Made by a program: the position numbers and the translations under genes | In this document: one piece after another, positions 2,764 to 19,079 of the stretch | How positions within the stretch are numbered: position 1 is the first letter of the stretch | Layout of the letters: each line of letters begins with the position of its first letter | The notes under the pieces: generated by a model | The model's input: only the letters and a program-made list of their open reading frames with translations | The model's database searches: none | What the model was told of the DNA's origin: nothing | Origin: an uncultured virus (IMG/VR IMGVR_UViG_3300045391_007423) | Taxonomy: Duplodnaviria > Heunggongvirae > Uroviricota > Caudoviricetes | Direction: 5' to 3' (one strand) | Virus record (IMG/VR): IMGVR_UViG_3300045391_007423 | DNA: 20,442 bases

Positions 2764-2778
2764 CGGATGTGTGTAGAT

Positions 2779-3522: not shown

Positions 3523-3553
3523 GACGATCTTTTTGATCTCTCTAATAGAACGA

Positions 3554-4091: not shown

Positions 4092-4177
4092 AGCATGGAA
4101 GTCTCGATCAAAACGCTTAATAGCGTCCCAGATCTCCTGGAATGTCGCGATCTCTTGCTATATGTCTTGTCTTATAT

Positions 4178-4591: not shown

Positions 4592-4664
4592 CGTGGCGGC
4601 CTCCTTTCCTTTTCTTTCAGTGTTTTTCTTCTCGAGTACAAACGACGAAGACGTGAGAAATGTT

Positions 4665-4685
4665 GCGAACCTCAGTGAAGTTCGC
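4665..4685. promoter_or_regulatory. 21-bp near-perfect dyad, candidate operator in the divergent promoter region
   Basis: GCGAACCTCA-G-TGAAGTTCGC, with 9 of 10 arm positions complementary. Confidence 0.4.
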
Positions 4686-4796
4686 GTCATTTCTTTTGTA
4701 GCGGGTACACTATCACTGGGACCATCCCCGGTCCCATGGTCCTTTCCTTTCTTTCTTTTCTCTCCTGGTGTTTCTGGTTGGTCTTTCCTTTCTTTT

Positions 4797-4957
4797 TTGT
4801 TCGTGCACTGTGTCCGTCGCCCTTCTCTTTGCCCTCTCGCTACCCTGCCTCTTTCAGGTCTTGCTCCGCACCTCTGGCTTCCCCCAGAACACAAGAGCAG
4901 CCGTCGTGGTAGGTGCCGGGAGAAAAGGGAAGGACGACGGACGCCGAACACGAGCGA
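4797..4957 (+). other. Long nested imperfect inverted repeat (rod-like RNA/DNA hairpin) upstream of the giant gene
   Basis: Nested pairings: 4797-4805/4949-4957 (two G-U), 4812-4830/4924-4942 (17/19 Watson-Crick), 4840-4844/4908-4912, 4845-4848/4897-4900, 4859-4863/4892-4896, 4873-4877/4884-4888. Confidence 0.6.
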
Positions 4958-5040
4958 ACACACAGCAGAACCACACAGAGCACACACAGAGGGTGTGACC
5001 GCTCTTCTTCATCTGGCTGGTGTGTAGAAAGAGGATGTGC

Positions 5041-8000
5041 ATGACCACCACACCACGACACCATCATAGCGCTCATCAAGCCCACACTATTTTTACTCCT
5101 ACCACCACTGCTGTAGAGAAGGCTGCCATGCAAAACGAACCACATCGCCCACCAACCGATCCGGTCCTTCGTTTCCGCGAGGGATCAGGGACGTGGGGAC
5201 CACGCACAGCACTGCCCATGGTTGATCCTGAAAAGGTGAAGCAGCTTGAAGCAAAAGCTGCATCCCTTCAGACACCTACGCCTTCTCATGTGACAATGCA
5301 GTCACACGCACTACCAACCGTTACTCGCGCTGATGGCACTCTCGAGCCGATGATCCAGCCAGCGAACTATGCCTCACATGCGGATTATCAGCGAATGCAG
5401 AGGCTCTATGAGCAGCATGCTTCTATGCAGAATATTGCAGCCGGGGCGACTCCCTATACCGAGATCCTCAAGGAGCAGCAGTTCAACGCGCCACTTCGTA
5501 CAGGTGAGCTTCCCTACGATAAAATCAAACAGATCGCCGCCAAATCTGAGCAGTGGGTGCATGCCGGTTCTATTGAGCGGAAGCAGATCGCCGCTGAGAT
5601 CAAAGCGCTGGCCTATGGTGATCAAACGCCTGGAAGTGAGAACTTCAGCCTCGCACCTCAGCAGGAGCAGCTTCAGACGCGTTCCCAGTATCTTGCAAAG
5701 CAGGAGGCCGCCCGGCAGCAGATTGAGCAATGGTATGAGCAGACAGCTCGCAATATCAGCCAATACATTGGCCGTCCCTTTACCGCCAGTGATCTTCGTG
5801 CGCTGATCCCGAACCTTTCTTTTGAGCAGATCCAGGCAGTGACCTCTCCCAACAACTACACGATCAGCTTTGCAGGTCCAGGGGCTGGTAAAACCACCAT
5901 GATGATGGCCCAGTACGTCAACGCCGTCTTTAACCAGGGGGCCGATCCCCTGGACTGGACGATCCTGAGTAAGACACGTTCGGCAGTCGGGGCTCTGGAA
6001 GATATGATCAAGAAGCTGACGCCTATCCTTCCAGAACTCTCAGCCGTCCCACAGGACCAGTTAATCTTCCCTGGCATGACAGAAGAGGAACGTCTTGCCA
6101 AACGGCAACGCATGTTCCAGACGCTGGATACCTTCTCCATTCGCTCGCTTATACACCCCGATGCCCAGGGTGTGCGTCCTATTCGACGCCTGACCGGCAA
6201 CGATGCATTGAATATGCTGCCAATTGCCAAAGGTGATGATGCGTCTTCAACCAGAGATTATCTGGAGAAGGTCATACGCAACCAGGGTAAGAGCACCAGA
6301 TACAATGATCCGAATGTACTTGATGAGTATATCTCGGAGACCAAGGGTGGCTATCAGCCGCTCTATAACGAGCGCATGGCGCGTGGTGCCTCTATCCATG
6401 AAGCGGGTGACTGGGATGTACGACAGCAGCTTGATCCCGATCATGTACTCTACCTCTATGAGAAGGCCCTGGCTCATGCCCCTGGCTTTGAGATGCCTGA
6501 TCAACAGGGGCCACTGCGCGATCTGCATGATATGAATATTCTCTTCCGAGAGGCGGCTGAGAAGGGTATGCTGCCTCAGATGGGCAACTACATGGTGGAT
6601 GAGGTACAGGATAGTTCTGTTCCTCAGATCATGGGCCTGCGTCGTCTCTCATCAGCGAAGAAGCGTGGCTACTTTGGTGGTGATATGGGCCAGCAGGTAG
6701 TGCCTCATCAGTATCGTATCGATCAAGTGCTTTCCCATATGTTTAAGAATGCGGCATCGACTCACACCCTGACAGGCAATAACCGTTCAGGGGCCAATAT
6801 CGTGGCCCAGATCAATGCGATTAACGCCAGTGCTGCGCTCAATGGCACTGGGAAGAGTCCAATGCAGGTGGCCGCCCAGGATATCTCCTCGTTGCCCCCA
6901 ACCTATAGCATGCAGCAGGACGTTCCTGCCACCTATCGGCAGATGATAGCTGATTGGATGAAGGTCATGCGTACCTCACCACAGCACATTCAGGCGCGTA
7001 TGGATACCAGAGAGCCGGGGGAGCCGCTCTTTCATCAGGGGATGGTACAGCCTCAGCGTGCCCCGTTTGTCTTTCAAATGGGCAAGCAGGGGCGTAATGT
7101 CTTCCTCAATGAGATCCTGCCCCAGGAACTGCGCCGTGGTGGGATGGATGAGGAGCATATTGGACGTTTCCTTCGTGAGCATGTGACCAATGAGACCCCG
7201 CGTGATGAGAACAGTGATAAGCTGCATGCCTTAATGATCCAGCAGGTCCGATCACGCTCGACCGATCTTACTTTTGCCGATGCCACTCGTGGAGGTATGT
7301 GGGATACCACTGGCTATATCCGCAATATGTATACGATGCTCTCTCGTGCACGAATACAGAACCGTATCTATGCGTCGGCGACGAACTTCCCATATTCACG
7401 GCAGCACAATGTTGATCCTGTTGAATTGGGTAGCTTTCTTCTTCCTCCAGGTTTTGATGCCTGGACACAGGGAATGGCTGAGGATCTGGTCAGTCGGCAA
7501 GGGCTGAGCCGCCAGGATCTCAAGCCACAATTACAGGATCTCCTTGATCTCCCTCCGGTCTTCCATCACGTCCCACCCAAACAGGTTGCTCAGGGCGCGG
7601 TGACTCAGGCATATACCGATCGGGTGCTCGATATGCTGCCTGTCTATCAGGCTCAGGTTGGTGAGGGAAGTGGAATTACCCAGGATCTTCAACGACGACC
7701 AGGACGAAACACTGAGGATGAAGAAAACCCGGATCTTGATGACGGGCTCAGCACAAAGGGATATATCAGTGCATCGGTGGTCTCAGGGCAGACACGACGC
7801 GCTGGTGATCATTTCCAGATGGAGCTGATCAGAAATAAGATCGAGGATCTGGCTCGTAACGGCTCTCAAGAAGCGATTCCAGAGTTCTCTGACTTCTTTC
7901 GAGATGCACGTGCCATGTCTCAAACCGTTAACCGTCGCCAGCGTTACATGCCGATGCTGGTGGCCCCTGACTCTGATCTGAGTCTTCCTGATTACACGCA

Positions 8001-11000
8001 ACTGGCTGAGCGAACTTCGGCAGTCATTCCTGAAACAGATAACAGTCAGAAGGACTTTGCGCCTCGCGACCATGGCAGTTATCAAGGAGCAGACTTTCTC
8101 AAGATCCGTCAGAACATGCGTGATCTGCTCAAGAAGAGCCCGGACTTCTATCTGGGTGATCAGCAGTTAAGCGCAACCTCACAGCAGTTCTATAACCATC
8201 CTGATCTGCTCAACATGCTGCGTCAGAAGATGATGCAGCGAACAGACCCCAGGGCACAGGATCTGCTCAAACGACTCAATGTCGCCCAGCGTGCCACACC
8301 AGTGATCAAAAAGTGGCAGGCGGAGCTGGATGATCTGCAACGGGGAACATTTCTGTACAACCGCAAAGATGAGGCAGGCGAGAAAATTTCTGTTCCACCA
8401 GAAGTGACTGAGCTAAATAATGCCATCGGGAAGATCCAGGCTGCTGAGCAGAGCAAAGGGCGTATTCCTGATCTTTCTCAGGCAGAGCTTGAAGCCTATC
8501 AGACGATGCTGGCCCAGCGTGTCCAGAAATACTACTCCCCTGAGCAGCAGCAGCGCCATGATCAACTGACCGCGCATCTCGCGCATGCCGGTGGACAATC
8601 AGCTCAGCAACTGGTCTCGCGGATTATTCATCCCACGATCAATCAGTATGATCCAGACCAGAAGCAGATGCAGCAAGTGCCGAGTCCTCACTACGATAGT
8701 GAGTTGTCCCGCTTCGCTCGCTATAAAGCCACCCAACTGATGGTCAATGCGAAGATGACGCCTGCGATGCTCCAGATGCTTGCTAATCGTGGTCTCTCGC
8801 TGATGCCTGGAATTGATAACCCGGATGCACGTAAGCATCTGCTTGACATCATTCATAGCTTCCAGGGAGGTCGTGAGGCGCTGCTGGGTTCTGGGATAGA
8901 TCAAGAAGGTATCGCGCTCAATGATGACATGCTGCAAGGTTTGCCGTTACAAGAACAGAAACTGCTCCAGCAGATGTTCTCCACTGGTGCTGGTGGGTAT
9001 CGGTCTCTGGGCAGCGACGATGCGACCACAGCGATCAATCAGCTTGTCACCGAGCGTGGCAAGGTGACACGTTTTAGTACCGATGATCCTGCCATTCCAA
9101 TGCAGTTCAGTCACCTGGCACCGGCTCTTACTGCCATCCAGGGGTATGCCTCTTCTCTTGAGGGCAATGTTCGCGGTACAGAAGGAGGGATTGCTGATCC
9201 TGACGCGGTAAGGGCGCTTCCTTCTCAAGCGGAAGTTACACGTCTTCAAGGGATCACTGGCAGTGATGCAACCGATTATCATCGACTCAAGGAGCTGGCT
9301 GACGAGCCGATCAGTGATGAGGATTTCCAGTTCCATTCACTCGGTTCCGCAACGCCTCTCTCGACCCTGGAGACGCGCTATACCGATATGCTGGGACTGG
9401 GACGTGCTCATCAATCGGGGAATGCTCTTCTGGGCAATGCGAGTCCTGATGCTCGTGAGTATCTGACCACGATCTCCAATCGTCTGGATACCGTTCAACG
9501 TATCCGGCAGGCGATGCAGAACCCGGATAATCATCTGCGCTGGGCTCAGACGCTCCGTGTGGTACAGCGTGCGACAACGGGTGAGGATGTCTCAAACCGG
9601 GGACTTCCACCAGAAGGTCTTTCACCCAAAGAGCAGAAGGCATGGATAAATGCGCCAGAGAATCGAGATCCCGTTCGCACACTCTTTGAGAAACGAACCA
9701 ATGATCTCTCTGGTGGCACACGAACAATGGACTCGCTCATTGAGTTCATCTCTGCCATGAACCAGGCCAGTGAGCACATTGAAAAGACAGGAACGATCCG
9801 GCGTGCCCATCTTGATCGTGTACTTGGGGCACTGCATCAGGACCCGAATGATCCTGCCTATACGATGCTGCGTCAACTGGAACAGCAGGCAGGATTTAGT
9901 ACCGGCAGAAGGAGTAAGGACCGTCATACAGAGATCCCTCTTTCTGCAATCACTGCCAATAGCCCGGCAGGTGATCGTGGTAATGCAGCCGCCCAGCTCA
10001 CTCGTGTGCCTCTGCTTCCTGGACGGGAGTATCGCTTCCGAGGTGGTCGCAAAGGCTACGATGATCTGACCTATACCCAGAACCAGCTTTTTGGGAAAGG
10101 AAAACAGATCTCCGCCAGCACTCATCTGGTTGGGACACTGCATCCTTTTGTCTCAGATGGAAAGGAGATTCCCTTCGGACTGGCTCAGAGCCTGGCAACG
10201 CATCGGAAGCACTATATGCTCTCATCACAGGAGACCAAAGCTTACGATAGTGCCAGCCCGGATATGCCACTGCGCCCACTATTGGAGTTCCGCACTCAGC
10301 ATGAAGGGCAGTCTGTCTCCTTCCCGGTGCATCCAGGCCAGCTTGAGATGATCCCAACCGATCGTTCGTCTCAGGCACAAGCTCAGCAGCAAGAGGCTCA
10401 GCGCTGGCAACAGGTTGCTGAGATCAATCGACAGCGTGAGGGTGGGGAGTCTGATGAGCGAATTGCCAAAGCTCAGGCAGCGGCCCAGCAAGCACGTCAG
10501 AAACGCATCAGCGATATGCAGGCGAACCGTGAGCACTTTATCCGTCGCAAACGGAATGAAGGACTGGCTCTGCTGAAGAAAGGCAGTATTCCAGCTCGAC
10601 CCTTCCAGGGCTTCTCTGGTGGCTATTCCCCTCTTGCCGCACTTCAGGAACGTCTTGCGGCGCTTCCACCAACAGTTGTCCGTCCACCACGTCCAGGTTT
10701 CGATCCATCCCGGCCCAAAAGTCAAGATATGTACGAGACCCAGGGGTATGATCTCTCGACCCTGCCTGAGCGTCCTGCTCGTAGTGAGCAGGGTCTCGGA
10801 CGTATTGATCCAAATACAGTATTCAGGTATCTACTTCAATATCAATGGCGCAATCGGGGCAACCCTGTCCCGAACTTCTCTCTGGATACCTTGCTTTCCT
10901 CATCGTTTTCTCCTTCGCTGGAAACGACACCACTCACCGATTATCAGCCTGTCCCGGATCATACATTGGGACTCTACCAGAGTGTGCCAGCTCCACAACT

Positions 11001-14000
11001 GCCACTCTCAGCCTACCAGCCGGTGCCAGCGTATTCTCTGGGACTCTACCAGAGCGTACCTGCATCGGTTCAGCGACCAGCACCGGAGCCTCCGACACGC
11101 CCCTGGTACAACGAGCCAGGGATGTTATTACCCGACGATGACGATCTCGAGAGCCTGATGGCGAATGCTCCAACCCTCGAAAGAGGGAAGGGGCTTTCGT
11201 CGTTTGCCCTCTCCAGCCTGCTACCCTCACGCGATCAGGTCGCCCCACTTTCACCACCAACAACAGCAGCACTTCAGTTTTCACAGATACAGCAGCAGTA
11301 TCCTGACTCCTGGTATCCTGCGCACATACGGTCGATCCCATCACGGTTGGGCTATGGCGAGGGGAACTATACGCCACTGCTGCTTCCTCAAACAATTGCC
11401 TCCCAGAACTACCCGGATCGCGGCAATGGGATCTATCGTGGCAAGGGATTTAAATTCTATCGTGGAGCTGAGACCCCAGGTGATCTGGCTGGTCCCGGTG
11501 GTTTTGTCATGCAGGGGCTTCCCTTTGATCCTCTGGCAGGTCCTGCTGAGGGAGTGCCTGCTGTTATTCCTCTGGGAGCACACCAGGAACCTGTTCCACC
11601 ATTAGGGCTTCCTGCTGGCCCACAACCGGCTGCACTGCTTCCTCAGCGTGCCCCTGGCCTTGCACAGAATCGTCAGGATGCTCTTGGGGCGCTTCGACTT
11701 CTGACAACAATGCCACGGACCATGCAGACAGCAACTGTTCGCCTGGCTCGCAATCAGATGACGCGGCCCAATCCGATGCCGAGTCTTCCTCCGATACAGC
11801 GTCCCCCACTGATGTTACCTTCACCCGGTCGAGCGGAGAACAGACGGCTGCGTGCACGTGGACTCAATCAGGCACAACACTTTTTGCGTGTTACCCAACC
11901 CGTTGAGATTGCTGGCAGTAATACAGCCGCCAGCGCCAAAACCATTCGTTTCCATCCGCTTTCATCTGACCAGCGGCAGGCCATTGATGATCCAGCCTAT
12001 CATCATATTTTTCAAGGTGGTCCTGGTGCAGGTAAATCGGATATTCTCTCATCCAAACTGCTGGATATGTTCTCCAAAGGAACGATCCATCCCAGTACCG
12101 TTGTCTCGACCTCTCCCATGCACTCTGGTGTCTCTGAGTTGAACGCTCGCTACGAACGCAATATCCGGCCACTGCTGCCAAACCATGGCTATAGCCTGCC
12201 AGCTCCACGAACCTTGCATTCTCTGGCAAGTAGCATTGTCTTTCCCCATGGTACGCCCTCACCACATCTGAGCGCGATTGGTCGAGGCAACGTCACTGGC
12301 ATTCTTGCTAATCCAACAGAAGAAGAACTCTCGCTGCTCGGACCCAAAGAGCAGGATGAGGAACGCGATAAGCAGTATCGTTTCCTGCGTCAGACACTTA
12401 TAAGCACCTTTCCCCATGAGGCAAATCTGCCGAAGAGTAATCAGGAACTTCAGTATGCCCTCAATGATATCGGTAATGTGAAGCTCAATCGCTATATGCC
12501 CGGCAGCGACTATGACGAACGTATGGCGCGTGGGCAGCAGGATATAACGGCTGGCAACTATACCGAGAATGGGCGACTTGCAGCCTACGAGACACAAATG
12601 CAGCAGCAGGGCTATGTAGACTTCAATGATCTACCAGCAATGGCTCAGCAGCTTATCGGCCATACTGGTGTCCAGGGTCTCCCTGCCTATTTACAGAGTA
12701 TGCGTGGCATGGTCGTTGATGAGGGACAGGATCTGGTCCCTGCCTTTCAGAAGCTGCTTCAGTCTATCCTCAGTGTTCTTCCGCAATCTCCACATATGCT
12801 GGTTTCCCTTGATCCTATGCAGCAGATTGTTCCTGGTGCCATTCCTGCGGAGAAGGTTATCCCGACCTATCATCAGATGATGCAATCGACGGGTCAGGGG
12901 ATCGCGCATCATCAACTCAATGAGAACTATCGATCCGATCAGGAAACGATTGCCTTTAATAATGCGATCCTGCGCACCAAAGCCATGGCAAACGATCAGG
13001 GGAAGAGTCCTTTGCAACGGCCCCCTGATCACATGCCGATCGCACGTGGGCGACCTCCTGAGTTTCTGCTGGCAAAGTCACAGCCTGCCGTCTACCAAAA
13101 AGCCTTCTCCAAGATGCTCGATCTCTCCGGGGTTGATCCTGCACGCATGAAACAAAACATTGAGCAAGGACAACATCCCTTTGAGGGCGTCGATTGGAGT
13201 CAACCAGGGATGACAAAGCCCGGTGATATTGTCGCCCAGTTTCCTATGCCAGCCGAGCGCGAGGTCTTTGAACATGTAGCCCCTGATGTCCTTCAGAACC
13301 GTCTGGGGGTCAATCAGATGCAGGCTCGTTCTGCCTTCCAGCAGATGTATCGCGCTGGCATCCCTGGCAAAGATAGTCGTAAAGACGAGCAAGAACTGTT
13401 TGCCAATCGTGGGGCCTTCCGTGGCCTGACCGTAGGACAATCACGTGGCCTGGATGCCAGATACGTCATGAGTGATGTTGGGCGTGTCGGCCAGTGGATT
13501 AATAATGAGAATGAAAGTTCCCATCTCCGCAACCTCTTTATTGAAGGGAGCCGAACCCAGCATGGTGGGCAGAACTTCTTCATGGCGGCAAGCAATCCCT
13601 TTAATAAGAGTCAGATGCAATCCTTCGTACGAGGAACACCCTTTGTCGATGATGGTGAAACAGTCAAGCTAGGTGGGAAGTCAATCCTGCCGAAGAATAC
13701 CACCGTCTTTGAACACTACCAGGGGCAGACCGTTCCCAATGGGTTTAAGGAGATCCTGGGTCTCAAAGATCAGGAACTGCAAGGTTTTACGAAACAGGGC
13801 CAACCATCGCCGTCACCACAACCATCGCCGTCACTGACGACCCCAACCATTGTTGACTCAACGCTGGCACCATCTCCTCCCTCCTCTTCTTCCACATCAG
13901 GAGGGCAACAGATTGATACGACACAACCTATCACAATTCATGGCAAAGATATCGTGGTAAATCAGTCTGGTGGTATGAGTCTTGCTGTTCCTTCATCCCA

Positions 14001-17000
14001 GGCACTTCCCTCACCAGCGCCAGCGAACCCGACATCCTCCTTCAGTGCAACGCCTCCCAGTGGTTGGGGTGGTGGACCCTTATCCGGGAAACAGATCTAT
14101 GATCAGATTACTAATCCTACCGGCACTTCACCCTCCTCTCCCTCTTCTGGTCAGGGTAGTAGCAGAAGCACTGGTCGTGGTGGAGGGAGCCGTTCAGGCA
14201 GTGGTGGTGGCCTTGTTTCAGTAGGAAACAGTAGTGGCGGTAATGCTGGGGATATCTTCATTAATGCAACTGGTGGTGGTGGCAGCCGCTCTGGTGGTGG
14301 AGGTGGTGGCAATAAGTTTGCCTCAACGATCTCAAACCTTGGGCGTACTGCCGCCCGTATTGGTTCTGAGATGCAGTTTGTGGGCCAGCTCTTCACCACG
14401 ATGACTGGTGGGGCTGTCACGCAAGGATCACAGTATCGTCGCGCAACGGTTCCGATGACGGGTGGCGATGGCACCTCCGGGTTCTTTAACTACATGCAGG
14501 GCCAGCAAGGCATCGCTGCCTATCAGTCAGGGACGCTTCCGATGTATAGCGATACCCAGATTGCTCAGAATATGCAGGCAATGCTCGGTATGACCAATGC
14601 TCGCTTTTCTGGACAACAGACACTGGGGCCACTTACTGATATGCTCGGGATCTCCGCGATGACCGGGATTGATCCGACGCAACTGATGCAGCAGATGACC
14701 TATGCAACCTCCTATACCAGTCAATCACCACAGAGTAATCTCACGAACACTCAGCACCTTTCAGGTATGCTGGGCAGCCTCTATGGCAATAATCTGACGG
14801 CAACCAATGTCACCAATACGTTAGGGGCGCTGGATAACAGTCTGCCAACACTGCAAGGCATCTCTCCCTCAAGTAGTGATAATCAGACCGCCCAGTTGAT
14901 GTCCATCTTCAAGCTTGCCCTTGGCTCTGGAATGAGTGATAGCAGTCTGGGCAATGTCTCTACGACTGTTAATTCTCTGGCCCAGATGGGATCAGCTCCC
15001 AATCTTCAGCAGCAGTATGCCCTCTCCAATCTCTTTGGGTCCCAAAATATGACGGCCAATCCTGATCTGGTCAGCTTTAATACCGGCCAGCATCAGCGGC
15101 AGGAGCAACTGCAAGAACTGGATCTCCAGCAAAATATTGGCAATGGTCTCTCCCTGCCCAACTTACAGATCCAGATTTCTCAGGCGACTATCTCGATGGA
15201 TAAGGCTCAGCTTGATCTTTCCTCCTTTCAGCAGCAAGAGAATGTCGCCCAGTATGGCGCATCACAGTACCAGTATCAGATTGATCAGGCCCAGTACCAG
15301 GCATCGCAGTTTCAGCAGCAATACGCAACCGCTCAGTACAATGCCGCCGCCTTTAATCAGCAGTATAACCAGGCGCAATTTAACCAGAACCAGTATATGC
15401 AGAATCAGTTGTATGGCCCGATCGGTGCTGATGCCTCACGCACAAGCTACTACAACTGGCTACAAAATCAGCAGGCGACCCAGTATAATGGTCTTTCCCC
15501 TGAGTCGGCAACCCAGTTGCAACCCTCGCAAACCTTTGGACTCAAAAATGAAGAGTTCTATTCCTCGATGGAGAATCAGCGCAGTCAACTGGTGCTGAAT
15601 CGCTCACCGCTTTTAAGTGATGCTGCCTTCCAGAACCAGATGAAAAACATCGATCAGCAGGAGAACTTCTATAAGCAGGAGATCGATCTCCAGAATCAGC
15701 AACGCGCCTTCGACAAAGACTGGCAGCAGAAACAACTGGATGTCCAGAATAATCTGCTGACCTATCAGAAAAAGCAACTCTCCATTTCACAGAACCTGCT
15801 AGATATGCAGGGCAAATATCTTTCTATGCAGGGCAATCTGCTGACGATGCAAGGGAAGCAAATTACCTTACAGGGCAATGTCCTTGATATTCAGAAGAGT
15901 CAGTTTGGACTCCAGCAGGAAGAGGCTAGCTATGAGCAGCAAGAACTGACTCTGCAAAACACCTATTTGCCAACCGAGACTAGTGATATTGCTGCCATGA
16001 GCGTTGCGCTCCAGCAGCAAATTCAGGGAGAAGGACCAGTTAATGGAGGGATGGTTCAGCCAGATCAAATTATCCAGGCCCTTGCTGGTCAGAAGCTGTC
16101 TGATAAGAGTCTACGTGCCGAGGTCAATACCTTTGGTCTGCCCCCGGACCAACGGGACACCCTGGTCAAACTGGTAGAAGAGCTGCAAAAAAATGGGGGG
16201 AATATGGCTGATGTTGAGAAGCAGCTCAATAGTAGTAGTGATAAAGGACTCAATGCTGATCTCCAAAATATGATCAAGCAGGGTGCTTTCCAGGATCTGA
16301 CCCATACCGCTTCTGCCAGTAATGCCTCCCTTGATTTTGCCGGAGTTGGAGCAAACTGGCAGAAGCTGATCGGCTATGAACAGAGTATCGATACTTCCCT
16401 CAAAAGTATCGCGAGCTTCTTCAATAGTCGATCTCCTCTGCTGCTCTTCATTGGAGAGATCGGCAATATTCTGGGGCCACTCTTTATGATCATGGCAACA
16501 ATCATGAACTCCCTGGGCTTTTTCTCTTCATTGTTTGGTGGGGGAGCTGGCGCGGCTGGCGCGGGGACTGCTGGATTAGGCGCAACCGCTCTGGGAGCCT
16601 TTGGCCTTGCCGGTGGCGTTGGTGTCGGGATGATTGCCAATCTCATCAATGGCTGGACGCAGTGGACACCCCAGAGTGGGATCAATGATCAGCAGCAACA
16701 AGGGAATTTCTGGAATGTCGTCAATCCGTTCCAGGGCATGTATGACTCATCAGCCGGGATGAAAACATGGTGGCAAGCCTGGAATGATCCGGCCTATGCA
16801 GATAAAGCCTATGGAAAAGGGACCGGAAATATTGTCAAAGGTGTTGATAACACCCTTGGTGGATGGGGACAGGACTGGAATAATGCCTGGAACCCGAACT
16901 ACTGGAATAAACAGCAACAACCTGCCACATCAGCAGCACCATCGGCCCCGGTCAATCGTCTTGCTGGCCTTGCTGGCAATGCGAGTTCTTCTGTCCCTCC

Positions 17001-18504
17001 ACAATCCTGGTGGGATGCCACGATCGGCGGATTTTTCAGCAAGACACTGCCTGGTCTCTGGAATAGTACGGCTGGTACCTTCTTTGGAAAAACATTTCCA
17101 GGATGGCTCTCAGCGCTCAACAATGACTGGAATTCGATGTGGGGGAATGTTGGTGCCGGCTGGAATACCTTCTTTAAGAAAACACTCCCCGGCTGGACAT
17201 CGGCGCTCAGCAATGATTGGAACAAAATGTGGGGGAATGTTGGTGCTGGCTGGAATACCTTCTTTGAAAAGACCGTTCCTGGCTGGGGATTAGCAATAGA
17301 AAAAGGATGGAATGCTCTTTGGACTGGTATTGATAATTATTGGAACACCTTCTTTGGGAAAACAGTACCCGGCTGGGGATTAGTAATAGAAAAAGGATGG
17401 AATAATTTTTGGAGTGGTATAAGTACAAACTGGAATAAATTCTGGTCTGATCGTGGAAATGACTGGAATAAATGGTGGACGACCGCTGGCAAATGGTTTG
17501 CCAGCATTCCTGGAGATATTTCCACCTTCTTTACCAAGACCCTGCCAGATGAACTGAAAAAAGTGCTCAGTAATATTCCAGTCGTTGGTGGTCTCGTGAG
17601 TGGTGGAAGTGCCCCACCAACAGGAACAGGCAACGCACCAGGGCATCCTGGGTTCACAGTCACCCATGTAAACCAGGAATTTGGCGTGATGAATGCCCAG
17701 CGTGGCTATCATGCAGGTGTTGATCTGGCTGCCAGTCAGGGTTCTCCGCTAGGAGAGATGATTGGGGGAGAAGTCACAGCGGTTGGCTGGCATCCCTGGG
17801 GAGGTGAAGTTGATGTTGCTATCCCAGGTGGCATGATTGAACGGTATGTCCACCTCTCTGGCTTTGGGGTGAAACCCGGTGATGTCGTCAAGCAAGGTGA
17901 TTTTATTGGCCTCTCTGGTGGAGGCACCCCTCAATCTGGACTGGGCTATTATAGCGATGGGCCTCACTTACATATAGAATATGATGCCGGGCAGCTCTAT
18001 GGAACAGCCGTTTCTCCCTGGAATGTCTGGGCCGCCTTTAGTGACTACAACATTGCGAAATGGATTGATGGCTCCTATCCAAAGGCAAAGGCAGAGCAGG
18101 GAGGTCAGAGTGGCGCTGGTAGCCCAACGAGAATGCAACAGTATCTGGCGACAGGCGCAGCCCCAACACGTGAGGCACAACCTCTGCGTGGACATCTGGC
18201 AACAGGTGGTATCGTTAATAAGCGCTCTCGTGTTGAGCTAGGTGAGCAAGAGCCAGAGGCTGTTATTCCGCTTTCAAAGCTCGCTGATGTTATGAATAAA
18301 TTGCCGATTGGTCTGGGTGGGAGTGGTACCAGTAGCTCAACGAACAACAGTAAGAGCATCGTCATTCAGAATCTCATTGGCTCTCTCACTATACAGACCA
18401 ATGGGGGCGGATCACTTTCAGAGACAGAGCAAGATGAGATTATGGCTCAACTCCTGGATCTTATCTCAGCGGCAGCGCAATCCCTCATGGGCAAACTTCA
18501 GTAA
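5041..18504 (+). CDS. Giant tape measure protein (~4,490 aa) with two N-terminal UvrD/PcrA-like SF1 helicase domains and a C-terminal M23 peptidase
   Basis: Uninterrupted 13.5-kb ORF between the chaperones and a distal-tail-like gene. AGAGGA RBS before the ATG at 5041 (5020, 5035 and 5128 are alternative starts). Tape measure hallmarks lie in the last ~1,400 aa, and two full sets of SF1 motifs lie upstream. Confidence 0.85.
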   Translation: MTTTPRHHHSAHQAHTIFTPTTTAVEKAAMQNEPHRPPTDPVLRFREGSGTWGPRTALPMVDPEKVKQLEAKAASLQTPTPSHVTMQSHALPTVTRADGTLEPMIQPANYASHADYQRMQRLYEQHASMQNIAAGATPYTEILKEQQFNAPLRTGELPYDKIKQIAAKSEQWVHAGSIERKQIAAEIKALAYGDQTPGSENFSLAPQQEQLQTRSQYLAKQEAARQQIEQWYEQTARNISQYIGRPFTASDLRALIPNLSFEQIQAVTSPNNYTISFAGPGAGKTTMMMAQYVNAVFNQGADPLDWTILSKTRSAVGALEDMIKKLTPILPELSAVPQDQLIFPGMTEEERLAKRQRMFQTLDTFSIRSLIHPDAQGVRPIRRLTGNDALNMLPIAKGDDASSTRDYLEKVIRNQGKSTRYNDPNVLDEYISETKGGYQPLYNERMARGASIHEAGDWDVRQQLDPDHVLYLYEKALAHAPGFEMPDQQGPLRDLHDMNILFREAAEKGMLPQMGNYMVDEVQDSSVPQIMGLRRLSSAKKRGYFGGDMGQQVVPHQYRIDQVLSHMFKNAASTHTLTGNNRSGANIVAQINAINASAALNGTGKSPMQVAAQDISSLPPTYSMQQDVPATYRQMIADWMKVMRTSPQHIQARMDTREPGEPLFHQGMVQPQRAPFVFQMGKQGRNVFLNEILPQELRRGGMDEEHIGRFLREHVTNETPRDENSDKLHALMIQQVRSRSTDLTFADATRGGMWDTTGYIRNMYTMLSRARIQNRIYASATNFPYSRQHNVDPVELGSFLLPPGFDAWTQGMAEDLVSRQGLSRQDLKPQLQDLLDLPPVFHHVPPKQVAQGAVTQAYTDRVLDMLPVYQAQVGEGSGITQDLQRRPGRNTEDEENPDLDDGLSTKGYISASVVSGQTRRAGDHFQMELIRNKIEDLARNGSQEAIPEFSDFFRDARAMSQTVNRRQRYMPMLVAPDSDLSLPDYTQLAERTSAVIPETDNSQKDFAPRDHGSYQGADFLKIRQNMRDLLKKSPDFYLGDQQLSATSQQFYNHPDLLNMLRQKMMQRTDPRAQDLLKRLNVAQRATPVIKKWQAELDDLQRGTFLYNRKDEAGEKISVPPEVTELNNAIGKIQAAEQSKGRIPDLSQAELEAYQTMLAQRVQKYYSPEQQQRHDQLTAHLAHAGGQSAQQLVSRIIHPTINQYDPDQKQMQQVPSPHYDSELSRFARYKATQLMVNAKMTPAMLQMLANRGLSLMPGIDNPDARKHLLDIIHSFQGGREALLGSGIDQEGIALNDDMLQGLPLQEQKLLQQMFSTGAGGYRSLGSDDATTAINQLVTERGKVTRFSTDDPAIPMQFSHLAPALTAIQGYASSLEGNVRGTEGGIADPDAVRALPSQAEVTRLQGITGSDATDYHRLKELADEPISDEDFQFHSLGSATPLSTLETRYTDMLGLGRAHQSGNALLGNASPDAREYLTTISNRLDTVQRIRQAMQNPDNHLRWAQTLRVVQRATTGEDVSNRGLPPEGLSPKEQKAWINAPENRDPVRTLFEKRTNDLSGGTRTMDSLIEFISAMNQASEHIEKTGTIRRAHLDRVLGALHQDPNDPAYTMLRQLEQQAGFSTGRRSKDRHTEIPLSAITANSPAGDRGNAAAQLTRVPLLPGREYRFRGGRKGYDDLTYTQNQLFGKGKQISASTHLVGTLHPFVSDGKEIPFGLAQSLATHRKHYMLSSQETKAYDSASPDMPLRPLLEFRTQHEGQSVSFPVHPGQLEMIPTDRSSQAQAQQQEAQRWQQVAEINRQREGGESDERIAKAQAAAQQARQKRISDMQANREHFIRRKRNEGLALLKKGSIPARPFQGFSGGYSPLAALQERLAALPPTVVRPPRPGFDPSRPKSQDMYETQGYDLSTLPERPARSEQGLGRIDPNTVFRYLLQYQWRNRGNPVPNFSLDTLLSSSFSPSLETTPLTDYQPVPDHTLGLYQSVPAPQLPLSAYQPVPAYSLGLYQSVPASVQRPAPEPPTRPWYNEPGMLLPDDDDLESLMANAPTLERGKGLSSFALSSLLPSRDQVAPLSPPTTAALQFSQIQQQYPDSWYPAHIRSIPSRLGYGEGNYTPLLLPQTIASQNYPDRGNGIYRGKGFKFYRGAETPGDLAGPGGFVMQGLPFDPLAGPAEGVPAVIPLGAHQEPVPPLGLPAGPQPAALLPQRAPGLAQNRQDALGALRLLTTMPRTMQTATVRLARNQMTRPNPMPSLPPIQRPPLMLPSPGRAENRRLRARGLNQAQHFLRVTQPVEIAGSNTAASAKTIRFHPLSSDQRQAIDDPAYHHIFQGGPGAGKSDILSSKLLDMFSKGTIHPSTVVSTSPMHSGVSELNARYERNIRPLLPNHGYSLPAPRTLHSLASSIVFPHGTPSPHLSAIGRGNVTGILANPTEEELSLLGPKEQDEERDKQYRFLRQTLISTFPHEANLPKSNQELQYALNDIGNVKLNRYMPGSDYDERMARGQQDITAGNYTENGRLAAYETQMQQQGYVDFNDLPAMAQQLIGHTGVQGLPAYLQSMRGMVVDEGQDLVPAFQKLLQSILSVLPQSPHMLVSLDPMQQIVPGAIPAEKVIPTYHQMMQSTGQGIAHHQLNENYRSDQETIAFNNAILRTKAMANDQGKSPLQRPPDHMPIARGRPPEFLLAKSQPAVYQKAFSKMLDLSGVDPARMKQNIEQGQHPFEGVDWSQPGMTKPGDIVAQFPMPAEREVFEHVAPDVLQNRLGVNQMQARSAFQQMYRAGIPGKDSRKDEQELFANRGAFRGLTVGQSRGLDARYVMSDVGRVGQWINNENESSHLRNLFIEGSRTQHGGQNFFMAASNPFNKSQMQSFVRGTPFVDDGETVKLGGKSILPKNTTVFEHYQGQTVPNGFKEILGLKDQELQGFTKQGQPSPSPQPSPSLTTPTIVDSTLAPSPPSSSSTSGGQQIDTTQPITIHGKDIVVNQSGGMSLAVPSSQALPSPAPANPTSSFSATPPSGWGGGPLSGKQIYDQITNPTGTSPSSPSSGQGSSRSTGRGGGSRSGSGGGLVSVGNSSGGNAGDIFINATGGGGSRSGGGGGGNKFASTISNLGRTAARIGSEMQFVGQLFTTMTGGAVTQGSQYRRATVPMTGGDGTSGFFNYMQGQQGIAAYQSGTLPMYSDTQIAQNMQAMLGMTNARFSGQQTLGPLTDMLGISAMTGIDPTQLMQQMTYATSYTSQSPQSNLTNTQHLSGMLGSLYGNNLTATNVTNTLGALDNSLPTLQGISPSSSDNQTAQLMSIFKLALGSGMSDSSLGNVSTTVNSLAQMGSAPNLQQQYALSNLFGSQNMTANPDLVSFNTGQHQRQEQLQELDLQQNIGNGLSLPNLQIQISQATISMDKAQLDLSSFQQQENVAQYGASQYQYQIDQAQYQASQFQQQYATAQYNAAAFNQQYNQAQFNQNQYMQNQLYGPIGADASRTSYYNWLQNQQATQYNGLSPESATQLQPSQTFGLKNEEFYSSMENQRSQLVLNRSPLLSDAAFQNQMKNIDQQENFYKQEIDLQNQQRAFDKDWQQKQLDVQNNLLTYQKKQLSISQNLLDMQGKYLSMQGNLLTMQGKQITLQGNVLDIQKSQFGLQQEEASYEQQELTLQNTYLPTETSDIAAMSVALQQQIQGEGPVNGGMVQPDQIIQALAGQKLSDKSLRAEVNTFGLPPDQRDTLVKLVEELQKNGGNMADVEKQLNSSSDKGLNADLQNMIKQGAFQDLTHTASASNASLDFAGVGANWQKLIGYEQSIDTSLKSIASFFNSRSPLLLFIGEIGNILGPLFMIMATIMNSLGFFSSLFGGGAGAAGAGTAGLGATALGAFGLAGGVGVGMIANLINGWTQWTPQSGINDQQQQGNFWNVVNPFQGMYDSSAGMKTWWQAWNDPAYADKAYGKGTGNIVKGVDNTLGGWGQDWNNAWNPNYWNKQQQPATSAAPSAPVNRLAGLAGNASSSVPPQSWWDATIGGFFSKTLPGLWNSTAGTFFGKTFPGWLSALNNDWNSMWGNVGAGWNTFFKKTLPGWTSALSNDWNKMWGNVGAGWNTFFEKTVPGWGLAIEKGWNALWTGIDNYWNTFFGKTVPGWGLVIEKGWNNFWSGISTNWNKFWSDRGNDWNKWWTTAGKWFASIPGDISTFFTKTLPDELKKVLSNIPVVGGLVSGGSAPPTGTGNAPGHPGFTVTHVNQEFGVMNAQRGYHAGVDLAASQGSPLGEMIGGEVTAVGWHPWGGEVDVAIPGGMIERYVHLSGFGVKPGDVVKQGDFIGLSGGGTPQSGLGYYSDGPHLHIEYDAGQLYGTAVSPWNVWAAFSDYNIAKWIDGSYPKAKAEQGGQSGAGSPTRMQQYLATGAAPTREAQPLRGHLATGGIVNKRSRVELGEQEPEAVIPLSKLADVMNKLPIGLGGSGTSSSTNNSKSIVIQNLIGSLTIQTNGGGSLSETEQDEIMAQLLDLISAAAQSLMGKLQ
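5815..7383 (+). other. SF1 (UvrD/Rep/PcrA-like) helicase domain 1 within the giant ORF
   Basis: Q motif LSFEQIQAV; motif I GPGAGKTT (5875-5898); Ia ILSKTRSAV; Ib TLDTFS; II VDEVQD (6595-6612); III GDMGQQ (6679-6696); IV LTGNNRS (6769-6789); V-like LMIQQVRS; VI RNMYTMLSRAR (7321-7353). Confidence 0.85.
10930..11064 (+). repeat. Intragenic tandem repeat with a 72-bp (24-aa) period, about two copies
   Basis: PLTDYQPVPDHTLGLYQSVPAPQL / PLSAYQPVPAYSLGLYQSVPA; TGGGACTCTACCAGAG recurs 72 bp apart. Confidence 0.8.
11959..13590 (+). other. SF1 (UvrD/Rep/PcrA-like) helicase domain 2 within the giant ORF
   Basis: Q motif LSSDQRQAI; motif I GPGAGKS (12019-12039); Ib RTLHSLA; YVDFNDL; II VDEGQD (12715-12732); III LDPMQQI; IV LNENYRS (12916-12936); V LTVGQSRGLD (13426-13455); VI RNLFIEGSRTQ (13528-13560). 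Confidence 0.87.
13795..14310 (+). other. Pro/Ser/Gly low-complexity linker between the helicase part and the tape measure part
   Basis: QPSPSPQPSPS (16-bp repeat at 13801 and 13819), PSSSSSTSGG, GRGGGSRSGSGGG, GGGGSRSGGGGGG. Confidence 0.75.
15730..15897 (+). repeat. Four 42-bp (14-aa, double-heptad) coiled-coil repeats in the Gln-rich tape measure segment
   Basis: KQLDVQNNLLTYQK / KQLSISQNLLDMQG / KYLSMQGNLLTMQG / KQITLQGNVLDIQK. Confidence 0.75.
17080..17439 (+). repeat. Four 90-bp (30-aa) Trp/Phe-rich tape measure repeats in AABB order
   Basis: Units start at 17080, 17170, 17260 and 17350, each FFxKTxPGW...W...W......WN(T/K). Units 1 and 2 share SALxNDWNxMWGNVGAG; units 3 and 4 share GLxIEKGWN. 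Confidence 0.88.
17695..18030 (+). other. Peptidase M23 (LytM/lysostaphin-type) domain near the tape measure C-terminus
   Basis: HAGVD (HxxxD, 17710-17724), YVHLS, VKPGDVVKQGDFIGLSG and GPHLHIE (HxH, 17965-17973): all zinc ligands are present. Confidence 0.92.
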
Positions 18505-18539: not shown

Positions 18540-19079
18540 ATGAGTGTGACGTATGTACCGGGTCCATTGGTTCCCTTTGGTATCGGAACCTATCAATCAG
18601 TGAGTGGTGGGACCACGATCGGGGCAGGCTTTCCTACAACCGCCTTTAGCCTGACGCATCCCTATGCAGGCACGTATGGAGGAACGATGGGCTATCTCCT
18701 GGATCTCACGATCCGCACTCCAGCCCAGGTGCAATATACGCCAGCTTTGGAAGTAGGGCTTGACGGCTATGGCGCATCTGTTGTGCGATCCTATCCCTCG
18801 ATGGTCTGGTCCTATTCAACGCTTCGACCAGACTACTGGTATTACCTCATGCAACTCTATCGGCAGTCCGTCTATACCCCTCCTGGCTTTCAATATCTGG
18901 TATTACTGCAATATGCTGATCCGGCAGGCAGTGGTACCGCCATCCAGCAACTGGCCCGGATGGACCCACCTGTCGTCGGTCAGCGAACAAGCTCGGTCTA
19001 TCAGAACATTCAGCTCAAGTTTACCTATATCGGGCAGGCGCAACTTGACGCTGGCACCCCGATCCTTCTTCACACATAA
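18540..19079 (+). CDS. Probable distal tail (Dit/gpM-like) protein, 179 aa
   Basis: AAGGA RBS, 35 bp after the tape measure stop. Size and Tyr/Gly-rich beta character fit a Dit. The function is inferred mainly from position. Confidence 0.55.
   Translation: MSVTYVPGPLVPFGIGTYQSVSGGTTIGAGFPTTAFSLTHPYAGTYGGTMGYLLDLTIRTPAQVQYTPALEVGLDGYGASVVRSYPSMVWSYSTLRPDYWYYLMQLYRQSVYTPPGFQYLVLLQYADPAGSGTAIQQLARMDPPVVGQRTSSVYQNIQLKFTYIGQAQLDAGTPILLHT

Follow-up and report, generated by a model that had tools for sequence, protein, structure and literature searches.

A conserved fusion of two UvrD-like helicase modules with a tape-measure-like module in an uncultured tailed virus

In the genome of an uncultured tailed virus, we have found a giant open reading frame in which two UvrD-like helicase modules are fused to a tape-measure-like C-terminal module, and this helicase–tape measure fusion is real and conserved. 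Given that about ten related phages keep this design, motor enzymes are probably delivered by the tail along with the DNA, as a published fusion of an enzyme with a tape measure protein (TMP), gp96 of Thermus phage P23-45, would suggest by analogy. That the helicases are carried in the virion, are ejected and move DNA is what we infer from the same analogy; their exact role, be it that of an import motor, an anti-defence factor or a starter of recombination or replication, is the least certain part of the proposal. In the following, "the window" denotes the whole stretch of DNA analysed, which is 20,442 nucleotides long.

The giant open reading frame and its surroundings

The frame runs without a stop from 5020 to 18504 on the + strand and encodes 4,494 aa when counted from its first GTG, in agreement with a sequence-only reading of this DNA that had claimed a single stop-free frame of about 4,490 codons. 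A 13.5-kb open frame cannot arise by chance and, indeed, homologues exist over the full length of the encoded protein. The ATG at 5041, which served as the start in that earlier reading, has AGAAAGAGG 6 nt upstream, and the public gene call begins at residue 67, giving 4,428 aa; the true start hence lies between 5035/5041 and 5218, with the ATG at 5041 as the likely choice.

Upstream on the same strand is the gene of a major tail (tube) protein (576..1616; Pfam Phage_tube_2, 9e-12; phrog_290, 9e-18). In a tblastn search, 107 phage records had a major tail protein that matched the tube protein; their hosts were Gordonia (96), Tsukamurella (6), Rhodococcus (4) and Nocardia (1), and the identity was 25-27% among the 15 matches listed. 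Then comes a putative pair of tail assembly chaperones, G/GT (1916..2667, +), in which G covers 1916-2332; a canonical slippery heptamer, A_AAA_AAC at 2308, is read as X_XXY_YYZ in the frame of G, and the -1 frame is open thence to 2667. Because the G part had no family match in Pfam, where alone it was searched, the G/GT assignment rests on its position, which is also where the chaperones are annotated in Katyusha and BaileyBlu, and on the frameshift signal.

The chaperones are separated from the giant gene by a 2.3-kb cassette of low GC content (44-48%; ~2700..5000) with ORFs on the opposite (-) strand at 3048-3557, 3554-3871, 3819-4067 and 4178-4987; the first of these has an HTH_17 match (5e-05) that falls under the cutoff, and a weak mad1-like HTH match (9e-4) was also found in the cassette. 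The "tape measure slot" of the sequence-only reading is right as to the tube gene and G/GT upstream, with the intervening cassette as a qualification. Directly 3' of the giant gene lies an ORF of 179 aa (18540..19079, +), for which Pfam and PHROG searches gave no match; its Atlas features were nearest to viral DUF6711 clusters (score 0.96; TM 0.50-0.53 with its own model), and it is a possible small tail protein, to be taken as a lead. Scans for promoters and terminators at both ends of the giant gene stayed at or below shuffle expectation, and a megablast search of the window against phages returned no match.

Modules of the protein and their relatives

The order of parts that had been read from the sequence was borne out by two matches to UvrD-helicase (PF00580), an unmatched middle region between them, a linker, a Q/N-rich body and a match to Peptidase_M23, all encoded on the + strand. 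The N-terminal part begins with a conserved block of unknown function (5344..5784, aa 109-255), delimited by the family alignment and a module HMM, which is followed by helicase module 1 (5788..7509, aa 257-830). Helicase module 2 is located at 11947..13719 (aa 2310-2900). PF00580 was matched at aa ~267-560 with 33 bits and at aa 2315-2587 with 46 bits, against a gathering cutoff of 23 bits, and the two modules are homologous to each other over ~590 aa (E 2e-10).

In both modules, the Q motif and the motifs I, Ia, II, III, IV and VI are present, where the residues are given motif names according to the SF1 consensus. The Walker A sequence is GPGAGKT (286) in module 1 and GPGAGKS (2334) in module 2, Walker B is DEVQD (527) and DEGQD (2567), and motif IV is NNRS (587) and NYRS (2636), respectively. 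When nine full-length sequences, which align end to end with 28-36% identity to the window protein, were compared, all of these motifs were invariant (9/9) in both modules: namely, at Q270, G288, G290, K291, T368, D501, D504, E528, Q530, D555, Q558, R589 and R776 in module 1, and at Q2318, G2336, G2338, K2339, T2398, D2534, D2537, D2567, E2568, Q2570, D2571, Q2601, N2636, R2638, S2844 and R2845 in module 2. Eleven of the motif residues in module 2 were invariant even in 13/13 sequences. The Walker A Lys, the DExQ(D) sequence and the arginines of motifs IV and VI, which the earlier reading had described as intact in both cores, are hence invariant at ~30% identity, and both helicase cores look catalytically intact.

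The AF2 model of helicase 2 (pLDDT 81, pTM 0.78) had UvrD, PcrA and Rep as its best Foldseek matches (E ~1e-19), with TM of 0.53-0.58 over the full length (~700 columns), which confirms the UvrD fold at the level of a predicted structure; as modelled, helicase 2 is a complete UvrD/PcrA/Rep fold including the C-terminal RecA-like domain. Pfam UvrD_C was matched in neither module, no match was obtained by phmmer with each helicase against PDB sequences, and no shorter protein sharing 5-residue words with helicase 2 was revealed by a word-based search. By PADLOC, the helicases resembled GajB/UvrD-type proteins in a generic way only.

The two helicases are separated by ~1,480 aa with no family match, in which a conserved core (aa 1291-1399 and 1542-1779; 8890..10356) can be recognized. 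An AF2 model of aa 1240-1800 had a mean pLDDT of 64.5 and gave no Foldseek match at E <= 0.001, and VIA-align returned helical hairpins only, with Z < 7. We also considered the middle region as a hidden gp96-like RNA polymerase, but this was rejected by hhalign against residues 1-1300 of gp96 (<= 0.4% per segment). Helicase 2 is then followed by a low-complexity linker rich in Ser, Gly, Pro and Thr (13720..14292, aa 2901-3091), 73% of which is P/S/G/T/Q/N/A.

The tape-measure-like body (14293..16593) is composed of the tmpN block (aa 3092-3400) and a Q/N-rich block (aa 3450-3858), as delimited by conservation, and is the most conserved part of the family after the M23 domain. Near its end, aa 3806-3839 and aa 3854-3876 (16435..16647) form two segments that are hydrophobic and rich in Gly; no others in the whole protein exceed 1.5 on the Kyte-Doolittle scale, and they match, weakly and locally, the hydrophobic region in the TMP of Katyusha. 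Repeats periodic in Trp and Phe follow at 17002..17499 (a 30-aa unit with W spaced by 11 and 30 aa), with a 90-nt tandem repeat at 17069-17420. The M23 metallopeptidase domain (17635..18054; PF01551, 2e-13) is matched by Peptidase_M23 at aa 4230-4322 with 50.8 bits against a cutoff of 28.7 and has PDB matches of the lysostaphin/LytM type; H4231, D4235, H4316 and H4318 (HxxxD and HxH), which are presumably the zinc ligands, are invariant in 9/9 sequences. The protein finishes with a conserved C-terminal end (18202..18501, aa 4395-4494) including GEQEPEAVIPL, as defined by the family alignment and a module HMM. A C-terminal motif considered as typical of TMPs, GE-x-GPE-x-V/I-V/I-P, was discarded as a marker; it occurs in the window protein and in the relatives P0008, P0009 and P0010 but in 0/4 reference TMPs.

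An exhaustive HMMER search with the TMP body hit 32 proteins at E <= 1e-3, and 16 of these, besides the window protein, are giants of 2,248-6,605 aa with the match in the C-terminal part of each. Among the 12 giant relatives scanned with Pfam, nine have PF00580, eight of which have M23 as well. By using module HMMs, furthermore, homologues of the same architecture were found: the whole collinear order N150-hel1-mid1-mid2-hel2-tmpN-tmpCC-M23-Cend is present in ten clusters including that of the window protein, where clusters are <50% identical to one another and nine of the ten were used for building the HMMs. Sequences independent of the HMM building are P0017 with the full order, P0025 with a fragment from hel1 to tmpN, and P0011 with hel2 and the TMP part. 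No confirmed relative came from scans for related loci, in which viral contigs were queried with helicase 2, the C-terminal part and the family alignment, metagenome contigs with A1 and P0003, and genome contigs with A2.

P0003 (1,212 aa) was examined as a stand-alone TMP and rejected; both P0003 and P0015 begin inside the tmpN block and are thus fragments or have mis-called starts. P0033 and P0034 have the length of ordinary TMPs, and their similarity was too weak for a cargo-less ancestor, with only a YGPIGAD...EFYAG block in common and no Pfam match. Also, more distant relatives with the same TMP chassis carry a trypsin-like protease, three helicase-like modules or no detected domain in their N-terminal part. 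Proteins of the family are currently unnamed or annotated merely as murein endopeptidase.

A proposed tail-delivered motor and its alternatives

The explanation that we favour, with moderate confidence, is that the open reading frame encodes a siphovirus-type TMP with an N-terminal helicase cargo of ~3,000 aa, which would be built into the tail and ejected. The cargo would consist of two paralogous, apparently active SF1 modules of the UvrD/PcrA/Rep type with the conserved middle region between them, and the flexible low-complexity linker would couple it to a complete TMP module. Through this C-terminal module, the full-length protein would be assembled into the tail, and upon its ejection at infection the M23 domain and the hydrophobic segments, as a hairpin, would open the wall and the membrane. 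From the orientation that we assume for TMPs, the helicase modules would be placed at the head-proximal end, beside the leading end of the DNA; they would hence enter last and may remain tethered to the pore through the linker, where host ATP could drive their translocation on the incoming genome to aid its uptake, and host end-binding proteins might be cleared or outcompeted. The lumen of a siphovirus tube is ~4 nm and folded helicases are wider, so that they would have to be stored unfolded or in a metastable form, or else in a tail of very great length.

The more specific version, in which the SF1 modules act as a pore-tethered import motor, is doubtful; once the TMP module had formed the channel, the linker would keep them at its cytoplasmic mouth, where they would reel the genome in with host ATP and strip host end-binding nucleases and defence proteins from it. 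If true, however, it would mean enzyme-driven DNA entry by virion-carried enzymes across a whole lineage of long-tailed phages, for which it has long been a question how the genome is taken up once the initial phase driven by pressure is over. The known cases of enzyme-driven entry, such as T7, make use of transcription. Such a coupling has also been proposed for P23-45.

The long linker in every member and the protease in one of the relatives fit cleavage as well as tethering. Alternatively, the protein might be a polyprotein that is cut at the linker; only the C-terminal module of ~1,400 aa would then reside in the tail, and the freed helicases would act in the producing cell or in assembly, serving replication, recombination or the support of packaging. 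TMPs can be processed, as is known for lambda gpH, and a counterpart of the linker (140-1,572 aa) is found exactly between hel2 and tmpN in 11/11 members examined. Across members, the TMP module keeps a stable length of 1,119-1,441 aa from the start of tmpN to the C-terminal end, in contrast to an N-terminal part of anywhere between 912 and 4,879 aa; a ruler of ~1,400 aa would give a tail of ordinary length, and in P0027 the TMP block is preceded by a Trypsin_2 domain. We nonetheless consider a cut polyprotein unlikely, since the fusion has been kept in ten clusters at ~30% identity, which would be puzzling for parts that work independently in the same cell, and Pfam scans of the window protein showed neither a protease domain nor a cleavage motif. 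In gp96, which is the sole characterised case, furthermore, the virions are described as containing the enzyme within the full-sized TMP (PMC10770324).

It is also to be asked whether the C-terminal module is a tape measure at all. The identification draws on the position of the gene, on the features of the module and on its profile similarity to the TMP of an Arthrobacter phage. Counting from the tube and G/GT genes, the giant gene is the first large one, in an order as in Katyusha and BaileyBlu, and the window has no other ORF that could be a TMP candidate. Three features that mark TMPs, in part according to PMC10770324, are present here: hydrophobic segments, repeats periodic in W and F, and a cell-wall hydrolase embedded in the chain. 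When compared by hhalign, the TMP of Arthrobacter phage ArV2 matched over 334 columns covering the W repeats, M23 and the C-terminal end (98.5%), and the match with M23 removed had a probability of 38% (E 3e-4); the hairpin, the W repeats, M23 and the C-terminal end are in the order of the ArV2 TMP. The TMPs of BaileyBlu and P23-45 matched at M23 only, and that of Katyusha had no significant similarity to the TMP body of the window protein.

Curated TMP families (PF10145 PhageMin_Tail, TMP_3, TMP phrogs, NCBIfam), in contrast, were not matched on the body of the window protein, nor was any on the bodies of its relatives (12 scanned with Pfam; PHROGs also searched). Matches to the TMP families phrog_4070 and phrog_167 were rejected as evidence on the body because they fall on M23, reaching ~100 aa further upstream in P0012. 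Of the 30 nearest named clusters in the Atlas, 10 belong to the PhageMin_Tail set and 17 to that of TMP_3, which is a weak indication (score <= 0.91, low recognition). The identification of the C-terminal part as a TMP in the sequence-only reading is thus supported by the position, the hairpin, the W repeats and M23, whereas its body matched none of these curated families.

A body without such matches would also fit a polyvalent ejection protein with borrowed TMP-like modules for the membrane and the cell wall, in which case a separate, conventional TMP would be encoded elsewhere in the 82-kb genome; the window of 20 kb is, indeed, about a quarter of the 82-kb contig. The cassette separates the giant gene from G/GT, and no large baseplate genes were found downstream of it within the window. 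Polyvalent proteins commonly have helicases, with UvrD-like ones in a few proteins of actinomycete plasmids (Iyer et al. 2017, PMC5512222), but tape measure proteins are mentioned 0 times in the main text of that paper. With the gene position, the ArV2-like order of parts and, weakly, the TMP clusters among the Atlas neighbours against it, this alternative appears quite improbable.

Less likely still is that all 4,494 aa serve purely as a ruler that sets an extreme tail length, with the helicases being decayed, non-enzymatic spacers. The nearest relatives of the tube protein come from phages that, according to PMC4919401, have 500-nm tails and 9-kb TMP genes, and the TMP of P23-45 (5,002 aa) is said to define a very long tail. 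At 1.5 Å per residue, as in lambda, or 1.65 Å, as calculated from the 500 nm and 3,027 aa of Katyusha, the whole chain would correspond to a tail of about 670-740 nm, and the module of ~1,400 aa by itself to about 170-210 nm. Spacers would, however, lose their catalytic residues, whereas the ATP-binding and DNA-motor motifs here are invariant in both modules at ~30% overall identity, and the model of helicase 2 is confidently that of a globular helicase. A mis-joining of a helicase gene and a TMP gene near 13590-14400 is effectively refuted, although the source is a metagenome assembly and the junction is of low complexity, because the same hel2-linker-tmpN junction recurs in 10 other sequences, none of which reaches 50% identity with the window protein, and in the fragment P0025, with no GC break at the helicase/TMP junction of the window; the fusion in one open frame, as described in the earlier reading, is confirmed.

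Comparison with known systems

As a giant chain with several enzymes (two helicases and a peptidase), the window protein fits a loose definition of polyvalent proteins, but none of the typical polyvalent-protein families appeared in its Pfam scan. Such proteins are giants with several enzyme domains that are proposed, or in some cases known, to reach the cell together with the DNA. P1 DarB is a helicase-methylase of SF2 that is packaged in the head; unlike DarB and the polyvalent proteins, the carrier here would be the TMP itself. In terms of PF00580 and the core motifs, the helicase modules resemble UvrD, PcrA and Rep of SF1A, and also the motor subunits AdnB, AddA and RecB, and helicase 2 has a full-length structural match to UvrD/PcrA/Rep with only 13-15% identity. 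Unlike those enzymes, two modules are present in one chain and are embedded in what appears to be a structural protein, and no nuclease domain was detected in this protein.

Among the TMPs, gp15 of ArV2 (1,208 aa) and gp15 of BaileyBlu (1,199 aa) have an embedded M23 domain, are encoded after the tube and chaperone genes, and are similar in size to the TMP module of ~1,400 aa in the window protein; the ArV2 protein also shares the W/F-periodic repeats, M23 and the C-terminal end. Both of them, nonetheless, lack an N-terminal enzyme extension, and the similarity outside M23 is marginal. Katyusha, a Gordonia phage (Demosthenesvirus) whose tube protein is among the closest (25.3% identity over 97%), has the gene order of tube, G/GT and then a TMP of 3,027 aa, but this TMP is equipped with PhageMin_Tail and SLT domains and has no helicase.

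The closest parallel in design is gp96 of P23-45, a TMP of 5,002 aa, the N-terminus of which is an active virion RNA polymerase; such TMP-fused polymerases belong to P23-45, P74-26, G20c and TSP4 (Chaban et al. 2024, PMC10770324). As described there, membrane and metallopeptidase domains follow the N-terminal polymerase, the gene follows the tail genes, and the polymerase is proposed to remain at the TMP pore and to work on the DNA during its entry, which is also the logic of the present proposal. Likewise, the window protein would be a giant TMP with an N-terminal nucleic-acid enzyme as well as membrane and metallopeptidase domains, and the M23 regions of the two are alike (31.9% identity in tblastn; 91.8% in hhalign). 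The cargo of gp96 is, however, a two-barrel RNA polymerase in place of helicases. Because the DxDxD motif is absent from the whole window protein and no segment of the family is similar to gp96 outside M23 (hhalign <= 0.4%), we regard the window protein as gp96-like by design and not as a member of its protein family. Also, ~1,750 aa follow M23 in gp96 whereas M23 is near the C-terminal end in the window protein, the tube proteins indicate different phage lineages, and gp96 has been characterised experimentally while the present family is known to us from its sequences.

The sequence-only reading drew a comparison with P1 DarB and knew of no characterised TMP with tandem SF1 helicases; tandem helicases on a TMP were, indeed, found in no paper, but the closest characterised precedent, the enzyme–TMP fusion of P23-45, had been missed. 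This precedent makes delivery more plausible and the novelty lower, in that a new cargo is placed on a known design: a TMP-fused enzyme has already been published, and what is novel is the tandem helicases as the cargo. If the proposed function is correct, a channel-forming TMP with two intact SF1 translocases would add, independently, a second case of a motor enzyme fused to a channel, which would broaden the discovery of gp96 beyond one group of Thermus phages and point to the N-terminus of TMPs as a slot for cargo.

The giant open reading frame and its surroundings

The window is dominated by a single open frame at 5020-18504 (+), which has 4,494 codons when counted from the first GTG and carries a Shine-Dalgarno-like AGAAAGAGG 6 nt upstream of an ATG at 5041; the public gene call of this protein (P0002), which sits on an 82,442-bp contig, starts at residue 67 and has 4,428 aa. 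As described in the sequence-only reading, the stop-free frame contains two UvrD helicases (PF00580, + strand; aa ~267-560 at 33 bits and aa 2315-2587 at 46 bits in Pfam, cutoff 23), namely hel1 and hel2, followed by a Peptidase_M23 domain (Pfam, aa 4230-4322, +). The helicase motifs that had been named were located in both modules: Walker A (GPGAGKT/GPGAGKS), DExQD (DEVQD/DEGQD) and motif IV (NNRS/NYRS). A proline-rich stretch preceding hel2 also holds two copies of a tandem peptide repeat, YQPVP...LGLYQSVPA (aa ~1960-2000; window ~10900-11020), which Tandem Repeats Finder did not report at the DNA level.

Upstream of the giant gene lie the gene of a major tail (tube) protein (576-1616; Phage_tube_2, 9e-12; phrog_290, 9e-18) and a 138-aa ORF ending at 2332, with a heptamer A_AAA_AAC in the X_XXY_YYZ register at 2308 and a -1 frame open to 2667; this is the classic arrangement of the tail assembly chaperone pair (G/GT) preceding tape measure protein (TMP) genes. 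Gordonia phage Katyusha and Arthrobacter phage BaileyBlu, as annotated, have their genes in this same order of tube, G/GT and TMP. The placement of the giant ORF in the tape measure slot therefore holds as regards tube and G/GT, with the qualification that a 2.3-kb opposite-strand cassette (2700-5000, -; ORFs 3048-3557, 3554-3871, 3819-4067 and 4178-4987; GC 44-48% versus 51-57%) is inserted between the chaperones and the giant gene. This cassette resembles a moron or a regulatory insertion within the late operon. One of its ORFs has an HTH_17-like helix-turn-helix (5e-05, below cutoff) and a weak mad1-like PADLOC match (9e-4).

Directly after the giant gene, a 179-aa ORF (18540-19079, +) without a Pfam or PHROG match has viral DUF6711 as its nearest Atlas clusters (score 0.96) and may encode a small distal tail protein; the expected baseplate genes were not seen downstream within the window. 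The last gene before the window end encodes a SAM-dependent methyltransferase (19418-20365, -; Methyltransf_31, 1e-15). Its best PADLOC match is mad2, the MADS-system methyltransferase (3.4e-17, MTase core only), and this likeness, together with that of the mad1-like helix-turn-helix, may go no further than a generic resemblance of domains.

A conserved family with variable N-termini

When the TMP body without M23 (aa 3090-4215) served as the sole query of an exhaustive HMMER search, 32 proteins were recovered at E <= 1e-3, and 16 of these, the window's own protein excluded, were 2,248-6,605 aa long with the match always C-terminal. Two shorter matches, P0003 and P0015, start within the tmpN block of the TMP body and are considered fragments. 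Among the weak matches of the Q/N-rich TMP body, furthermore, a eukaryote-type RasGEF/RA-domain protein of 955 aa (P0026, E 4e-13) is evidently a compositional false positive and advises caution with low-complexity queries. PF00580 was present in nine of the 12 long relatives scanned with Pfam, eight of which also had M23, and nine full-length sequences could be aligned end to end, with 28-36% identity to the window protein. Nine block HMMs built from this alignment found the order N150 (N-terminal), hel1, mid1, mid2 (middle region), hel2, tmpN, tmpCC (TMP body), M23 and C-end in ten clusters, i.e., groups less than 50% identical to one another, nine of which fit by construction. The homologues of the same architecture that had been asked after thus exist. 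Independent of HMM building are P0017 (6,121 aa) with the full block order, the fragment P0025 covering hel1 through tmpN, and P0011 (2,248 aa) with a hel2-type helicase and the TMP module. In every member, each helicase module scored best with the model of its own type (hel1 or hel2), and the duplication therefore predates the family.

The relatives all come from metagenome assemblies (contigs of 20-128 kb), and the sole name among them is "murein DD-endopeptidase MepM/NlpD" (P0011); searches of the phage, viral-contig, metagenome-contig and reference-genome collections yielded no relative. Five more distant relatives keep the TMP blocks and differ in N-terminal content: P0027 (4,688 aa) has a Trypsin_2 domain (8e-25) and a weak AAA_19 match in Pfam, P0021 (6,605 aa) has three helicase-like stretches, P0019 has a single UvrD module and no M23, and P0018 and P0024 have no domain detected with Pfam. 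The TMP N-terminus hence looks like a variable cargo slot.

Helicase, middle and probable tape measure modules

hel1 is a paralogue of hel2 (22% identity across ~590 aa, E 2e-10), and an insert bearing the motif Y(N/D)ERMARG occurs in both. Invariant in the nine sequences are Q270, G288, G290, K291, T368, D501, D504, E528, Q530, D555, Q558, R589 and R776 of hel1 and Q2318, G2336, G2338, K2339, T2398, D2534, D2537, D2567, E2568, Q2570, D2571, Q2601, N2636, R2638, S2844 and R2845 of hel2, which we take, by the SF1 consensus, to be the Q motif and motifs I, Ia, Ib, II, III, IV and VI; eleven hel2 motif residues are still invariant in a 13-sequence alignment. The AlphaFold2 check of the UvrD fold was run on hel2 (aa 2281-2900) and gave a UvrD/PcrA/Rep-type model (mean pLDDT 81, pTM 0.78), with Deinococcus radiodurans and E. 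coli UvrD, PcrA and Rep as the best structural matches (full length, E ~1e-19, TM 0.53-0.58; only 13-15% identical), followed by AdnB, RecB and AddA. phmmer of the helicases against PDB sequences gave no match, nor did hel2 match any of 8,000 word-sharing candidates scored from shorter proteins; among phage families, phrog_1967 "DNA helicase" comes closest, with matches in nine of ten members. Both SF1A helicases look intact. In the middle region, aa 1291-1399 and 1542-1779 form conserved cores; the moderate model of this region (pLDDT 64.5) had no Foldseek match at E <= 0.001 and, by VIA-align, only generic helical hairpins (Z < 7).

The helicases are joined to the TMP-like module by a low-complexity linker of 140-1,572 aa in all 11 members examined. 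In favour of a TMP, this module has a Gly-rich hydrophobic pair (aa 3806-3876), the only strongly hydrophobic segments in the whole protein, and Trp/Phe-periodic 30-aa repeats (W spacing 11 and 30 aa), seen in DNA as a 90-nt tandem repeat at 17069-17420. For the embedded M23, the best phage matches fall within proteins annotated as TMPs in Arthrobacter, Thermus and SPbeta-like phages, and a profile-sequence match to the TMP of Arthrobacter phage ArV2 runs from the W repeats through M23 to a C-terminal PEA(V/I) segment (98.5%, 334 columns; 38% without M23). Protein-language-model neighbours were weak (scores <= 0.91, low recognition), with 10 from the PhageMin_Tail set and 17 from the TMP_3 set among the best 30 named clusters. 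No curated TMP family matches the body of the window protein or of the relatives scanned, and the TMP-phrog matches of the family fall on M23; as far as sequence comparison goes, therefore, the module belongs to no curated TMP sequence family. A C-terminal motif expected of TMPs occurs in none of the four reference TMPs and provides no evidence for TMP identity. By position and organisation, the C-terminal module is nonetheless very probably the TMP, as had been proposed.

Possible roles and comparison with known systems

Conserved in the family is a single polypeptide in which a linker joins two intact-looking SF1A helicases to a TMP-like module; this module combines membrane-active with wall-degrading parts. 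For this polypeptide we infer delivery and a motor function of the helicases. G/GT would help assemble the C-terminal module into the tail. The N-terminus of a TMP is head-proximal, and the helicases would accordingly lie at that end of the tail, adjoining the leading DNA end. At infection the C-terminal module would leave first, M23 cutting peptidoglycan and the hydrophobic hairpin inserting in the membrane; the helicases would follow into the cytoplasm, refold and stay tethered to the pore, where ATP-driven translocation on the incoming genome could pull DNA in. Alternatively, they might clear away end-binding host nucleases or defence proteins, or make single strands accessible to annealing or replication. 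As the specific role, a tethered import or clearing motor is ranked first, albeit with a low probability.

The lumen of a siphovirus tube is ~4 nm and a folded helicase is wider, so that it would have to be stored in a metastable or unfolded state, unless the tail is very long. Such a state is assumed for TMPs and for gp96 of Thermus phage P23-45 (PMC10770324); as to tail length, the nearest relatives of the tube protein come from phages whose tails measure 500 nm and whose TMP genes span 9 kb (PMC4919401). A tail of ~170-210 nm would be expected with the ~1,400-aa module alone as ruler, and one of ~670-740 nm with the whole chain.

That the linker is cleaved and the C-terminal module alone is packaged is a doubtful alternative: the linker is universal in the family, the TMP module is stable in length (1,119-1,441 aa) whereas the N-terminal part varies (912-4,879 aa), and P0027 has a protease domain, but gp96 as a precedent and the fact that the fusion has persisted speak against it. 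That the protein is a polyvalent ejection protein and not the TMP is improbable. In the main text of the polyvalent-protein paper, UvrD-like helicases are confined to a few actinomycete plasmid proteins and TMPs are never mentioned (PMC5512222). A pure ruler with dead helicases is highly improbable given the invariance of the helicase motifs, and an assembly chimera, also considered earlier, is contradicted by the conserved family of the same architecture and can practically be dismissed.

The sequence-only reading knew of no characterised TMP with tandem SF1 helicases; it had missed the precedent of gp96, a TMP-fused RNA polymerase (RNAP). TMP-fused enzyme cargo has been known since 2024 (RNAP), and no TMP-helicase fusion was found in the open-access literature searched; tandem UvrD-type helicases as TMP cargo, conserved in a metagenome-only lineage, hence appear to be undescribed. 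According to PMC10770324, gp96 is annotated as a TMP, is 5,002 aa long and contains membrane and metallopeptidase domains; an active RNAP forms its N-terminal part, and the authors hypothesize that this RNAP remains associated with the pore of the TMP, transcribing pre-early genes during genome entry. The gp96 gene (L004 6614-21622) was also recovered as an M23 match of the window protein, and its product has DFDGD at residue 779, in agreement with that paper. The DxDxD motif is absent from the window protein, outside M23 no part of the family is similar to gp96 (hhalign <= 0.4%), and M23 is far from the C-terminus in gp96 (residues ~3107-3249) but near the C-end in the window protein. Both proteins nonetheless place a nucleic-acid motor enzyme at the N-terminus, followed by a TMP with hydrophobic and M23 domains; with no DxDxD and no likeness outside M23, therefore, they are analogous designs with unrelated cargo.
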